Origin: a phage
Length of the DNA: 64,000 nt
Reading direction: 5' to 3' (one strand)
Sequence record: PZ295659.1
Part shown: one piece after another, positions 25,825 through 63,547 of the stretch
Layout: each line of letters begins with the position of its first letter
Numbering within the stretch: position 1 is the first letter of the stretch
Notes under the pieces: generated by a model
What the model saw: only the letters and a program-made list of their open reading frames with translations
What the model was told of the DNA's origin: nothing
The model's database searches: none
Translations under genes and position numbers: made by a program

Positions 25825-27138
25825 TCAAATAAAATGGACGTCAAACCGGCCACGAGTTGTGCCGACATACAATAACTGTTTAGCTAATTCTGAATCGGCA
25901 TAATGGATACACGGTGTATAAACAAAGGCCGTGTCAACAGACATACCCTGGGCCTTATGGAAGGTTGATACTGGTAGTGCCTTCACCTTAGTGAACATAC
26001 GTTTAGCATCCCAGAATTCGCTCCATGGAGCTTTACCACCTTTATTCCAAAATTTGTATGTTTCTGCGGTCTTAGCCAAAAACAAATTGAATTTATAAAG
26101 CTCTTCTTCAGAAGAAATAACCTTTATATCTTCGCGGATGTATTCTTCATCATCCCCATATGTTTCTACTGTAAGATTCCAGTATCGTATCATATATTCG
26201 CCTGAAACACCACGTGCTTTAACGAATGTAGACGTTTCTACAGCATCTCGAATACGAACGAATTGGCCGTTATTGAAAAGCATTTCGGTCATATTTTTAC
26301 CATCTAGCTTATATGTCTTAGTAAACGGCTCTTGTAGAACAATGACTTCGTCTTTAATAAATGGTTTTTCTGTTTCAAGAAGTTTTCGGCGAATAATTGA
26401 ATTTAACTTGTCCACCGACTTATTTGTGAATGCCATCATTCGATTTTCGAAAAGGTCTTCAGGAGTTTTAACGACGTTAAAATAGTTCATCATATACGAT
26501 TTAAGGTCTGTATATCCATGAACACCATGCCCATCAACTACTTTATCGTAAATCCATTTGCCGTTACGAATATCAGTCGCAACATCAATAATTGGTGCAT
26601 TGCTACGTTTAACTTCTGTAAGGTTGCATTGCACGAAGTCTTTGTGAGTGAAGAAAGGACTTAGATACGCAGTTGATTCGCCTGGGTCTACCGGACGAAT
26701 CTGGCATCGGTCGCCGATTCCAATTACTGTACACCATTTAGGGATACTAGCTAACATTATTTTAAACAGAGAACGGTCGCACATTGACGCTTCATCAAAT
26801 AACAGTACACGGCACAAGGCTAAGTCGGGAACCTTTTTCTGTTCAAACAATATGTTTTCTTCGTATGTAGTTGGGTTGATTTTAAGAATGCTATGAATAG
26901 TCGATGCTTCTTGACCCGCAAGTTTGCTTAGAACCTTTTTAGCAGCATGTGTAGGGGCTGCTAAAATAATACCTGATTCTCCAGAAGAAATAAGGGCTTC
27001 AACGATGAATCTAGTAAGGGTTGTTTTACCTGTACCAGCAGGCCCATTAATAGTTACGTGATGTTTCTTTTCTTTAATAGCGTTCATAACAACGTTGAAG
27101 GCGTTTTTCTGGCCTTCAGTCAAATCATCAAATGTCAT
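25825..27138 (-). CDS. dda: DNA helicase Dda (SF1)
   Basis: 437 aa; MTFDDLTEGQKNAFN...INGPAGTGKTT Walker A; matches remembered T4 Dda. Confidence 0.9.
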   Translation of the reverse strand: MTFDDLTEGQKNAFNVVMNAIKEKKHHVTINGPAGTGKTTLTRFIVEALISSGESGIILAAPTHAAKKVLSKLAGQEASTIHSILKINPTTYEENILFEQKKVPDLALCRVLLFDEASMCDRSLFKIMLASIPKWCTVIGIGDRCQIRPVDPGESTAYLSPFFTHKDFVQCNLTEVKRSNAPIIDVATDIRNGKWIYDKVVDGHGVHGYTDLKSYMMNYFNVVKTPEDLFENRMMAFTNKSVDKLNSIIRRKLLETEKPFIKDEVIVLQEPFTKTYKLDGKNMTEMLFNNGQFVRIRDAVETSTFVKARGVSGEYMIRYWNLTVETYGDDEEYIREDIKVISSEEELYKFNLFLAKTAETYKFWNKGGKAPWSEFWDAKRMFTKVKALPVSTFHKAQGMSVDTAFVYTPCIHYADSELAKQLLYVGTTRGRFDVHFI

Positions 27139-27446
27139 CGTAAAGTCCCTGCAATTGGAATACTAACAATACGGCCTGTATCCAGGATTCGTTGATACAA
27201 TTTTTGCGTCTCCGCATCTAGTTTAAAGCGTTTCATTTCAAGCTTATTAAACCAGAACTTACGCGGAGTTTCGACCATTCTTAGAACTCCCATTTTTAAA
27301 TCTGTTTTATACTGTGTTTTCAAAGTATCGAAAACTTTATCTGCAATATCCTTTCTAAAAAATACTGCAGGACGATGCTCATCAAGTGGAACCGGGACAG
27401 TAAATCCTTCCATATCTCGATAAACTATTGCATATACATAAACCAT
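27135..27446 (-). CDS. Hypothetical protein (dda.1 position)
   Basis: 103-aa ORF with start/stop overlap to dda. Confidence 0.5.
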   Translation of the reverse strand: MVYVYAIVYRDMEGFTVPVPLDEHRPAVFFRKDIADKVFDTLKTQYKTDLKMGVLRMVETPRKFWFNKLEMKRFKLDAETQKLYQRILDTGRIVSIPIAGTLR

Positions 27447-27448
27447 AA

Positions 27449-28195
27449 TTAACCTTTAATCAGTTGGAATAATGATGCGCTAAGTGGTAAGCCACGTTTC
27501 AATTTTAATTTACCAATGAAACCGATCTTTTCAAAACGTTGCAGACCTTGGATAACTTTATCATATGTATCGAAAAGCGATTCAGCGTCAGTTAATTTAG
27601 TTTTAGTTTTCCAGTCAGAGCCTTTAAGAAGAACGTTGAGTTTAGTAAGTTCATGGCCTTCTGCTTGATGTGAGCCATTAATGCGTGCTTTCAAAGCAAC
27701 AATTCTAAGTTTAGATTCGTTAGATAAAGGTTGATTTTTCATCATGTTCGCCATATGCTTAACACGATTTTCACGTTTTGCTCGGATTTTTAAAATAGTG
27801 CCATAAATCTTTTTAATTTGGGCCCATTTCTTCTCGTCGAGATTAAGTTTCTCTACTTTACGAGCAGAAGGATTAGCGATACGTCTTGCAATGGCATCAC
27901 GTTTCTCAATAAGTTCTTCTAATGTTAAATCAGAACGAGCTGTGTTATATTTTTTCTTAACTGGGATAACATTACCTTTAATGTAGCCGATATCGTTATT
28001 AAAACGTTCTAAGGATAATTTCTCACCTTCAACAGAGTTATTGAAAGATTCACCTGAGTAAGCGCAGACCTTTTGATCAAGAATGTTTTTAAGGTAATTA
28101 AAATCTAAGTTAAAATCCTTAGAGCGTCTCTTCGCAGAAGCTCTGGTGTGGTCAAGACGACGATTGATTTTGTTAATTTTATTATTTGATAACAT
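27449..28195 (-). CDS. Hypothetical basic protein (position of T4 srd); degenerate HNH-like stretch without catalytic His/Cys
   Basis: 248 aa, lysine/arginine rich; ERFNNDIGYIKGNVIPV segment; no confident family assignment. Confidence 0.45.
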   Translation of the reverse strand: MLSNNKINKINRRLDHTRASAKRRSKDFNLDFNYLKNILDQKVCAYSGESFNNSVEGEKLSLERFNNDIGYIKGNVIPVKKKYNTARSDLTLEELIEKRDAIARRIANPSARKVEKLNLDEKKWAQIKKIYGTILKIRAKRENRVKHMANMMKNQPLSNESKLRIVALKARINGSHQAEGHELTKLNVLLKGSDWKTKTKLTDAESLFDTYDKVIQGLQRFEKIGFIGKLKLKRGLPLSASLFQLIKG

Positions 28196-28245: not shown

Positions 28246-28274
28246 ATAATATCATGCCCTCAGGTAGTGTACAC
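28246..28274 (-). promoter_or_regulatory. Early promoter (GTGTACA-N16-TATTAT)
   Basis: Upstream of ORF 27449..28195. Confidence 0.5.
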
Positions 28275-28348
28275 TCTTTTTTCGTAAAATGCTTTAATTT
28301 TTTATGTGTTATAATGGTTCTGAGTTCCATCCGGTTATTCCAATCCAG

Positions 28349-28957
28349 TCAGTAACCGACAATAGACAGATTCCAGATTGTATAACTTCCATCTTGAATA
28401 ATAGAATCTACACGCAGTGTAGTCCCTATAGGGAGCATAAATTCACATTCGTCAGATATAAGTCTAGCATTAGACCGTCTTGTCGCTTCAGGGAAAGCTC
28501 CATTGAACTCACAAGATGGCGCAGCCAGAATCATGTTAAGCATATGTTCACGGAAGTTGAAAGCAAATGGTGCATCTTTGATGCAGAACATATTAAATGT
28601 TCCGTAAAAATTATACGAAGCAAAGTTACGTGCTACACTGAACACTGGGCTGAAGCTCATTACTCTGTCAAATTTAATAATACTACCAACGCCTTTATCA
28701 TCGAGTGTGGCCATAGTTTTCTTAGAGATTCCACGATACATTGTCTCAGGAACAGAAGACGTCCAATTTCTACGAACGATTGAACTTAACTCCTGTTGGA
28801 TGCTATCAGGCTTGTTTTCCATACATTGCCATAGTACACTTTGTTCAATGTCGCTGAATTGCTCATCGATTTTGTACTGAAGCATATCTTGATAATCCGG
28901 GCATTGAGCACGACGAACCATTTCTTCAATTTCACATTCATTATACGGCATAAACAT
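28349..28957 (-). CDS. modA: ADP-ribosyltransferase, ModA/ModB-like
   Basis: 202 aa; R-S-ExE elements: YRGISKK, FSPVFSVA and SDECEF; position between dda and soc as T4 mod genes. Confidence 0.6.
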   Translation of the reverse strand: MFMPYNECEIEEMVRRAQCPDYQDMLQYKIDEQFSDIEQSVLWQCMENKPDSIQQELSSIVRRNWTSSVPETMYRGISKKTMATLDDKGVGSIIKFDRVMSFSPVFSVARNFASYNFYGTFNMFCIKDAPFAFNFREHMLNMILAAPSCEFNGAFPEATRRSNARLISDECEFMLPIGTTLRVDSIIQDGSYTIWNLSIVGY

Positions 28958-28985
28958 TTAGGTTTCTCCTGTGGTTGATAAAAGT

Positions 28986-29015: not shown

Positions 29016-29304
29016 TAAAAATTCAACATTTTCAAATGAATGATTTTGTTAGGTATTCGCGTTCTTGAAGTTCAGATTGACATGTCATGATAGACCTCCA
29101 TTTAAAGATAAGCCTATCATAACACGAGAGGAGGGAATGTAAACTACTTTTTAAGCTTTCCTACTAAAGGTCCATCAGGTCCAGGTTGTTCTAACATGAA
29201 TAAGGATGCTTTAAAAAGCAATGCCAACCCTTTCACCATTCGATACCATGTCTCAAAGTCTTTTTCCTTGATTTCTAGTAAGAATTTCTCTTTAAATTTC
29301 TCTT

Positions 29305-29493
29305 TCATTTCCAAGGACTCCATGGTGGAGGGTCGTCATAATAAGAGGCAAGGTCTTTCAGGGCTTCAACAGGTAAACTAAAGCCGTGTCGTTGTATAAT
29401 ACTATCTAGTTCATCAACAAGTTCACTACGATGCACTTTAGGAGCCTCAACTTCAGGCTCATCAAACATACTCATCAAGTCCATATTATTCAC
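29305..29493 (-). CDS. Hypothetical acidic small protein
   Basis: 62-aa ORF. Confidence 0.35.
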   Translation of the reverse strand: MNNMDLMSMFDEPEVEAPKVHRSELVDELDSIIQRHGFSLPVEALKDLASYYDDPPPWSPWK

Positions 29494-29950
29494 CGAGATA
29501 AAAACTAGCAGGTTCAGAGAATGTTTCTAGTGCTACACCTTTTGTCTTAAAAAATTTCCAAATAGCTCGTTGCAAATGGGTTAAATCTGCTAATGATGTA
29601 ATAAAGTATTTTTTGGCAAAATACTTATGGTCTCGCTTTTCAAACAAGTCTAAACGCTTTTCAGGATTCACATAAACTGCATTTTCCGTAGATTCATAAC
29701 CTAAGTCCTTTATGCCTTCTTCAAGACTAAACGGAGAATTTTTAGAATGAGTAATAGCTCCAACTCGCTCTACACGAATTTTGTAACCTTTAGGAATCTG
29801 CAATTTACAGAATTCTTCTACGATATATTGCGGATTATTTAGACTTTTGTTAATGAGAATAGCTATTTCTAGTGGAGTCTTATCTTCTACTGGTATATGT
29901 TTAAACGATTTGGCTTCAAGCAAATACATTTTAAATAACATAGCATCCAT
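29486..29950 (-). CDS. Hypothetical protein
   Basis: 154-aa ORF. Confidence 0.5.
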   Translation of the reverse strand: MDAMLFKMYLLEAKSFKHIPVEDKTPLEIAILINKSLNNPQYIVEEFCKLQIPKGYKIRVERVGAITHSKNSPFSLEEGIKDLGYESTENAVYVNPEKRLDLFEKRDHKYFAKKYFITSLADLTHLQRAIWKFFKTKGVALETFSEPASFYLGE

Positions 29951-30669: not shown

Positions 30670-30906
30670 TTAACCACTTACTGCTGTAGGCGTGAACATT
30701 GCTGCGTTCTTGGTCTTCCAGTCAGCAGCATCAGTTACTACCGTTGTATAAGCAGCTTTTTCAGACGGGAAAGTCTGATAATGAGAATCTGCAATCCGAT
30801 GTTCGTTTGAATAAATCTCAAACGGTACAGAAACTTCCATACCTTTAACTTCTTTGCCTTCACCAGCAGGATGCGTAAAGGTTTTGATGTTTACATAACC
30901 ACCCAT
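30670..30906 (-). CDS. soc: Small outer capsid protein Soc
   Basis: 78 aa; GYVNIKTF...HYQTFPSEKAAY matches remembered T4 Soc; late promoter upstream; strong SD aaaggag. Confidence 0.85.
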   Translation of the reverse strand: MGGYVNIKTFTHPAGEGKEVKGMEVSVPFEIYSNEHRIADSHYQTFPSEKAAYTTVVTDAADWKTKNAAMFTPTAVSG

Positions 30907-30951: not shown

Positions 30952-31473
30952 TTAGTAACCATTATCCTGGCGTTCAAAGTTGTGTTGGTTTTTCAGGTAA
31001 TACAGTTTGAAGATTTCTTCAGCAGAAAGTCCTAGACCTTGGAACATATTTAGAACGAAATGCAGAATATCAATCATTTCAAATTTAATTTCAAGCTGGT
31101 CTTCAGGAGACAGTTCATCGATACGACGATTTCGATATTCAGCATGTTGTGCCTTCCACGGCTTCCATACAGAGCTAGCGGCTTTTTCACCATTGCTCAT
31201 ACCACCAAGTGAAGTCAGCAGTTCACGGAATTCATCATCAATATAATCTTTCTGATTACGCAGCCAGTCAACAACATCACCAGCAGTAGCCAATTCATCA
31301 GGATGTTTGTTATGTTCAGGCTTGTCATTTGCCAGACGAACCTGTAAAGATTTCTGCATATCAAGCATTACCTGCAGAGGGTCTTTATCTTCGTGAATCA
31401 GAGCATTAAAATAAGCTTCTTCTGCTTTATCAACACCAGAAATAAGTTGTGAACATTCGTTAAAGTGCGCCAT
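30952..31473 (-). CDS. 56: dCTP pyrophosphatase gp56
   Basis: Start at ATG 31473 (MAHFNEC...), SD aaagga; MazG-like; between soc and gp61 as in T4. Confidence 0.75.
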   Translation of the reverse strand: MAHFNECSQLISGVDKAEEAYFNALIHEDKDPLQVMLDMQKSLQVRLANDKPEHNKHPDELATAGDVVDWLRNQKDYIDDEFRELLTSLGGMSNGEKAASSVWKPWKAQHAEYRNRRIDELSPEDQLEIKFEMIDILHFVLNMFQGLGLSAEEIFKLYYLKNQHNFERQDNGY

Positions 31474-31563
31474 TATTTTTCCTTTCAATTCAGTATAAGA
31501 GAAGTTAATTCTAACATTAATTTTATAAAGCGTAATAAATAATAAGGTAACTAAGGAGATATT

Positions 31564-63446: not shown

Positions 63447-63547
63447 TTAATTCATTTATTGAAGGTTCATCATAACATGGTTCTTCGTAGTTGTAAACCG
63501 TTTCGACGTCTGGCTCGACAGTTTCCCATCGAGCCGAATACCATGGT

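Follow-up and report, generated by a model that had tools for sequence, protein, structure and literature searches.

The window, by which we mean the whole 64,000-nucleotide stretch of phage DNA analyzed here, is ~98% identical to the Mosigvirus genomes of Shigella phage phi25-307 and Escherichia phages SF, ST0, PhAPEC2, and RB69, and on sequence grounds its source is a Mosigvirus (RB69-like). The gene under study is an ADP-ribosyltransferase (ART) gene of 609 nt on the minus strand, at 28349 to 28957, exactly where the initial annotation had placed it, and encodes a protein of 202 amino acids from an ATG start. Its Shine-Dalgarno sequence, GGAG at 28966 to 28969 (minus strand), was read 8 nt 5' of the first ATG in the context ...CACAGGAGAAACCTAAATGTTTATG... 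The gene is the counterpart of RB69 modA in the srd-adjacent position, termed here the A slot, and its product is 96.5% identical to the A-slot protein of RB69 and SF. A 159-amino-acid ORF antisense to the ART gene (28304 to 28783, plus strand) arises mechanically from the sequence of the coding strand.

Minus-strand transcription passes through gp56 (dCTPase; 30952 to 31488), soc (30670 to 30906), several small ORFs with an mrh/modA.3-like gene (29486 to 29950), the ART gene, srd (27449 to 28195), dda.1 (27135 to 27446), and dda (25825 to 27138), an order that matches the T4 early region and also that of RB69. The ART gene thus has the location characteristic of the Mod family, encoding a stand-alone protein of ~200 amino acids within the early region, with mrh/modA.x on one side and srd-dda on the other. 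RB69 ModA (AAP75920, "ModA RNA polymerase ADP-ribosylase") and its orthologs in SF, PhAPEC2, ST0, and phi25-307 share 96 to 98% amino acid identity with the ART protein and, as in the window, are encoded between the modA.2/mrh block and srd with the same promoter motif and ribosome-binding site. The name modA in RB69 was given by similarity and position, not by experiment.

Deletion of an upstream paralog

Most Mosigvirus genomes carry two tandem ART genes (examples are SF, RB69, ST0, PhAPEC2, ATK47, p000y, and mogra), namely, the 609-nt srd-adjacent gene (RB69 modA) and a 582-nt gene 57 nt upstream of it (RB69 modB, 193 amino acids) in what we term the B slot, whereas the window has only an 18-codon stub in that position. 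Alignment and sequence comparison with SF and phi25-307 place the loss at exactly 508 nt of the upstream paralog, with a 5-nt microhomology (coding-strand ACAAA; 29045 to 29049) at the junction, and BLAST matches to two-gene phages come in two pieces that overlap at query positions 88 to 92. The stub (29032 to 29088, minus strand), delimited by translation and by comparison with the SF paralog (L001:3115-3696), consists of 14 native codons (MTCQSELQEREYLT) and 4 frameshifted codons (KSFI) before a stop, and the orphaned Shine-Dalgarno sequence of the deleted gene, GGAGG, is still readable at 29095 to 29099 (minus strand). Residues 1 to 15 and 184 to 193 of the lost paralog were found by tblastn to be still encoded in the window as short remnants only. 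On this sequence anatomy, codons ~15 to 183 of the B-slot paralog were lost in a microhomology-mediated deletion.

A tblastn search with nine Mod-family proteins and T4 Alt detected no second ART elsewhere in the 64 kb, which bears out the earlier observation that only one copy is visible; the ART gene is single because the 508-nt deletion removed its upstream paralog. A single Mod gene between the mrh block and srd is also found in Gelderlandvirus STP4-a, Karamvirus EnC07, Krischvirus W115, and Klebsiella T4-like phages, with products 29 to 43% identical to the ART protein. No second Mod gene is annotated at the locus in those phages, whereas the window retains the scar of a recent loss.

Early promoter motifs

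The window was scanned for the pattern GT[GT]TAC-N13-15-TGnTAnnnT, which combines the T4 early -35 box with an extended -10 element. The minus strand gave 14 matches and the plus strand none, where shuffled sequences predict 0.54; the matches have their 5' ends at 63498, 58999, 36032, 35251, 30625, 29144, 29015, 28274, 24183, 14977, 14465, 11929, 11342, and 9433 and can serve as a map of where early transcription units lie along the window. The match at 28274 to 28246 (minus strand), which a generic sigma-70 scan also found, is the srd promoter motif.

Two further matches, both of the T4 early type, lie upstream of the ART gene. The first, P2 (28986 to 29015, minus strand; GTGTAC-N15-TGATACTAT), is located 29 nt 5' of the ART start codon, is conserved in phage SF, and in two-gene relatives overlaps the stop codon of the upstream paralog. 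With 8/12 hexamer matches, it was missed by the generic sigma-70 scan at its threshold of 9/12. The proposal of the initial annotation that the gene has its own early promoter is thus supported at the motif level by P2 (29015 to 28986). The second, P1 (29116 to 29144, minus strand; GTTTAC-N14-TGTTATGAT), is the orphaned early promoter motif of the deleted paralog; it shows 10/12 matches and an extended -10 element in the generic promoter scan, is identical in SF, and faces the ART gene from ~160 nt 5' of the retained start codon. The ART enzyme would be made early in infection from P2, as a sigma-70/T4-early-type promoter of its own, and the gene is probably also transcribed from P1. In T4, modB overlaps modA by 4 nt and there is consequently no intergenic spacer for a separate modA promoter, whereas each ART gene of Mosigvirus has its own promoter motif.

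Membership in the T4 Mod family

The assignment of the ART protein to the Mod-type transferases, proposed initially from its motifs, is strengthened by profile, sequence, and structure comparison. The protein matches PHROG 832 ("RNA polymerase ADP-ribosylase") with an E value of 8.7e-39 and aligns by BLASTP with T4 ModB over its full length (33% identity, 112 bits, E value of 5e-36) and with T4 ModA (32% identity, 74 bits, E value of 3e-21). All homologs found carry the precomputed Pfam accession PF26816.1, and full-length homology to both T4 ModA and T4 ModB places the protein within the family represented by PHROG 832 and PF26816. This family is small: an exhaustive search gave only 131 cluster representatives out of 1.84 billion at an E value of ≤1e-3 and 45 at ≤1e-10. 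Homologous-protein searches, even with a profile, returned only 12 and 16 close relatives, and the breadth of the family was therefore taken from the exhaustive search. In the local libraries, NCBIfam gave no match for the ART protein, T4 ModA, or T4 ModB; as both T4 enzymes are likewise without a match, its absence reflects the libraries. The only Pfam-A match of the ART protein in the local library, to MukF_M (E value of 0.049), was rejected as spurious.

Thirteen members of the family, representing 9 genera or lineages (Tequatro-, Mosig-, Dhaka-, Gapriver-, Gelderland-, Karam-, and Krischvirus, with two Klebsiella phages), were aligned, and R75, G76, S101, A109, F112, Y118, R160, E170, and E172 proved invariant. 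Of these, R75, S101, E170, and E172 belong to the predicted catalytic motifs, R75, S101-F-S103, and E170-C-E172, which together conform to the R-S-E (cholera-toxin-like) class of mono-ADP-ribosyltransferases. The NAD-binding arginine, which in this class is on the first core strand, is represented by R75, inside a predicted strand (72 to 76), and R75/G76 align with R73/G74 of T4 ModB, the residues whose replacement in a ModB R73A/G74A mutant abolishes catalysis (PMC10468400). The Ser-x-Ser/Thr motif is represented by S101-F-S103, on a strand (100 to 103) that is followed by a helix (106 to 113) in the predicted structure. The ExE turn of the arginine-specific subclass is represented by E170-C-E172, which aligns with E163/E165 of ModA, E171/E173 of ModB, and E-M-E of Alt; a ModA E165A mutant is catalytically dead (PMC11404850). 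The catalytic glutamates therefore line up with the ExE motif of all three known transferases, the point on which the initial annotation had staked the assignment. The three segments that it had named as the R-S-ExE triad (YRGISKK, FSPVFSVA, and SDECEF) are all present, but the invariant serine is S101, one residue before FSPVFSVA, and because this is the serine conserved across the family, the S-x-S/T motif is S101-F102-S103.

An AlphaFold2 model of the ART protein built on a 16-sequence alignment (mean pLDDT of 94.1, pTM of 0.87) predicts a four-helix N-terminal bundle followed by an ART core, with a match to the ART catalytic fold. Comparison among predicted viral structures gave a TM score of 0.85 against the predicted Tequatrovirus ModA and other phage Mod proteins. 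A sequence search of the PDB with the single ART protein yielded nothing relevant, and one with the family profile yielded marginal matches to XopAI and Vis in the ExE region (E values of 0.035 to 0.6); no solved Mod structure was found there. The arginine-specific R-S-E ART toxins (Tre1, 6drh; Vis, 4xzj; HopU1, 3u0j; iota/VIP2/C3) are 10 to 19% identical to the ART protein, and they are secreted and have different targets, whereas the ART protein would be an early protein of a phage.

Taken as a whole, the locus very probably encodes an active, early T4 Mod-family ART that occupies the A slot and became single through the 508-nt microhomology-mediated deletion of the B-slot copy. The protein would act as a stand-alone arginine-specific mono-ADP-ribosyltransferase. 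NAD+ would be bound through R75 and S101-x-S103, by the mechanism known for this class of enzyme, and, with E172 of the ExE turn as the catalytic residue, ADP-ribose would pass to an arginine in at least one host protein, a modification that may form part of host takeover.

ModA-like or ModB-like function

In T4, ModA (NP_049635) modifies RNA polymerase by ADP-ribosylation of Arg265 in both alpha subunits, and ModB (NP_049636) acts on S1, L2, EF-Tu, and trigger factor by both ADP-ribosylation and RNAylation. Annotation is inconsistent as to which of the two the ART protein resembles, with the RB69 record using modA and other records describing ModB-like proteins. We infer the enzymatic activity, early timing, and target of the ART protein, and no biochemical data on any Mosigvirus Mod protein were found in the literature searched.

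By synteny, the retained gene is the downstream, srd-adjacent copy and so occupies the slot of T4 modA, as expected of a ModA ortholog; it is not the upstream tandem copy, which in T4 is modB. T4 ModA and the ART protein are further alike in size and in the alignment of R72/E163/E165 with R75/E170/E172, in addition to the predicted structural similarity (TM score of 0.85). Their identity is only 32%, however, and they are not reciprocal best matches, as the best T4 match of the ART protein is ModB (112 versus 74 bits). With ModB, the ART protein shares an identical YRGISK around the catalytic arginine; it differs in that modB is in the upstream slot and that the insert preceding the ExE turn is longer in T4 ModB. 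In the other direction, T4 ModA prefers the A-slot over the B-slot protein (74 versus 43 bits), and once its own cluster is set aside, its best match comes from the A clade (P0009; 38% identity).

Neighbor-joining trees with bootstraps were built for 16 and 53 taxa at two gap thresholds, and their deep nodes are weakly supported. The srd-adjacent genes of Mosig-, Dhaka-, and Gaprivervirus form an A clade with 98 to 100% bootstrap support, and the Mosig/Dhaka B clade is supported at 100%. T4 ModA is sister to the A clade in the 53-taxon tree at 20 to 28% and lacks a clear placement in the 16-taxon tree. T4 ModB groups with the A clade in only 2 to 4% of bootstraps (53 taxa) and with the B clade in 0 to 1%. 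The B clade tends to group with the single Mod protein of Gelderlandvirus (60 to 67%). Cross-scoring with hidden Markov models (HMMs) shows the A clade to be central to the family, without specific likeness to ModA or ModB, and the A-clade model scores T4 ModB at 124 bits and T4 ModA at 95 bits. Synteny and the weak tree signal thus favor ModA in these sequence comparisons, and the BLAST score favors ModB. The trees do not discriminate between ModA and ModB orthology, in keeping with the earlier remark that the target cannot be told from sequence. In a roughly drawn estimate, RNA polymerase alpha, the ModA-like target, comes first at somewhat under even chances, and translation proteins, the ModB-like targets, come below it, level with the case of both or other targets.

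It could alternatively be speculated, with an appreciable but clearly minority probability, that the retained enzyme corresponds in function to T4 ModB, acting on S1, EF-Tu, and trigger factor and possibly performing RNAylation with NAD-capped RNA, and that the lost B-slot gene was an accessory extra. The full-length BLASTP match and the A-clade HMM scores both point this way, and a 2026 preprint on Mosigvirus AV110 lists T4 ModA as being without a homolog there (10.64898/2026.09.14.751387). The ModB R73A/G74A replacement cuts the burst size of T4 4- to 12-fold (PMC10468400), and about ten Mosigvirus isolates lack the B-slot gene; an A-slot enzyme equivalent to ModB would explain how this gene could be lost although ModB inactivation cripples T4. 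The higher ModB score may, however, reflect only fast divergence of T4 ModA, and the slot adjoining srd belongs to modA in T4, the bootstrap frequencies are lower for ModB than for ModA with the A clade, and T4 ModA finds its best external match in that clade. The A clade and ModA also have strings in common in the alignment, namely, NKPD, FP[DE], SDExE, and YTI[YW].

The B-slot "modB" protein of Gaprivervirus VR7 (L006:1151-1711) falls outside the Mosig/Dhaka B clade and groups instead with P0014, P0034, and P0035 (93% bootstrap), which indicates that different genera filled or replaced the upstream slot independently. On these tree groupings, the upstream slot is evolutionarily labile and the downstream slot is conserved. 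As used in Mosigvirus, Dhakavirus, and Gaprivervirus records, the names ModA and ModB convey position and weak similarity only, and the sequence data do not support moving the T4 targets (RNA polymerase alpha versus translation factors/RNAylation) to the proteins of these genera.

State of the retained gene

Across 15 Mosigvirus alleles of the retained gene, dN averages 0.023 and dS averages 0.156 (dN/dS of 0.15), and the catalytic residues are unchanged; the gene is intact and under purifying selection. These alleles also showed no amino acid change specific to deletion-bearing phages that might indicate compensation in the retained protein. That the gene is a decaying or catalytically dead relic is accordingly very unlikely. 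Such a view could draw on an internal 17-amino-acid deletion in the retained gene of one isolate, ZQ3, and on the failure of any Pfam or NCBIfam model in the local libraries to recognize the ART protein. The latter is countered by the like failure of NCBIfam with T4 ModA and ModB and by the presence of PF26816.1 on all homologs; the ORF is full length with every family-invariant residue intact, its dN/dS ratio is low, and its fold is predicted with confidence (pLDDT of 94.1).

The case of ZQ3 (Escherichia phage vB_EcoM-ZQ3, MW630116; L013:916-1473) deserves description in its own right. This phage has the same 508-nt B-slot deletion as the window and, in its retained ART gene, an in-frame internal deletion of 51 nt (corresponding to window positions ~28520 to 28570) that leaves 185 amino acids. 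The 17 amino acids lost, FAFNFREHMLNMILAAP, comprise a core strand and helix, and judged from sequence ZQ3 may be without any functional Mod enzyme. It would follow that the A-slot enzyme is not strictly essential, at least in ZQ3.

Distribution of the deletion allele

Base-by-base comparison showed the contiguous 186-nt junction of the window to be identical in eight other isolates (phi25-307, ZQ3, p000v, PHB12, EP02SG, HY126, SSE1, and S143_2). PNJ-9 and PNJ-6 also lack the second gene, as a 2601-nt region matches them in a single piece. Records at ≥90% identity number 153 with the A gene versus 139 with the B gene, and the deletion is, as far as deposited genomes tell, a natural allele in roughly 8 to 9% of sequenced Mosigvirus records. 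An assembly, sequencing, or laboratory-passage artifact of this one genome is next to negligible as an explanation for the missing gene, for although deletions between short repeats can arise in propagation and the microhomology is only 5 nt, the identical junction recurs in eight isolates deposited independently by several laboratories, from at least two host genera (Escherichia and Shigella) and differing named sources (water, lake water, sewage, and piglet intestine; a country is stated for three, all China), and at least two flanking haplotypes carry the deletion, whose bearers are mixed with two-gene phages in the A-gene tree.

Deletion-bearing phages do not separate from two-gene phages in the tree of the retained gene, and a single-nucleotide polymorphism (SNP) ~48 nt from the junction divides the deletion-bearers into two haplotype groups, which argues that the allele either moved by recombination or arose more than once. 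No SNPs diagnostic of the deletion allele were found near the junction. About ten independently deposited isolates carry the deletion, with at least two flanking haplotypes among them, and this could be taken to mean that the deletion is a selectively maintained allele rather than the product of neutral decay, a reading that we regard as doubtful. Were it true, it would fit a scenario in which the A-slot enzyme alone covers both ModA-like and ModB-like jobs, or one in which the B-slot transferase triggers defense in some hosts and its loss represents escape.

The ART gene is a known and widely annotated component of RB69-like phages, and its family is well characterized. The present analysis adds only the anatomy of the deletion, its recognition as a shared natural allele, and the caution against transferring T4 target specificities. 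No paper describing the Mosigvirus deletion allele was found in the literature searched, and the allele is visible in public genomes. The scar, consisting of stub and promoter, shows that Mosigvirus can dispense with the upstream Mod paralog; in contrast, the T4 ModB active-site mutant has a burst size lowered 4- to 12-fold. The deletion isolates provide ready-made natural knockouts for comparison.

Annotation of neighboring genes

A 54-amino-acid ORF at 29305 to 29469 (minus strand) is a homolog of T4 modA.2. In the GenBank records of PHB12, HY126, ZQ3, mogra, PNJ-9, and AV117, this homolog is labeled "molybdenum ABC transporter ModA," a misnomer propagated from the gene symbol modA.2. The mrh/modA.3-like gene is a single 465-nt ORF in the window (29486 to 29950, minus strand) and in other Mosigvirus genomes. 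In the RB69 record (L004:3510-3975), it is broken into two short ORFs, RB69ORF022c and "mrh," which suggests a frameshift or sequencing error in RB69.
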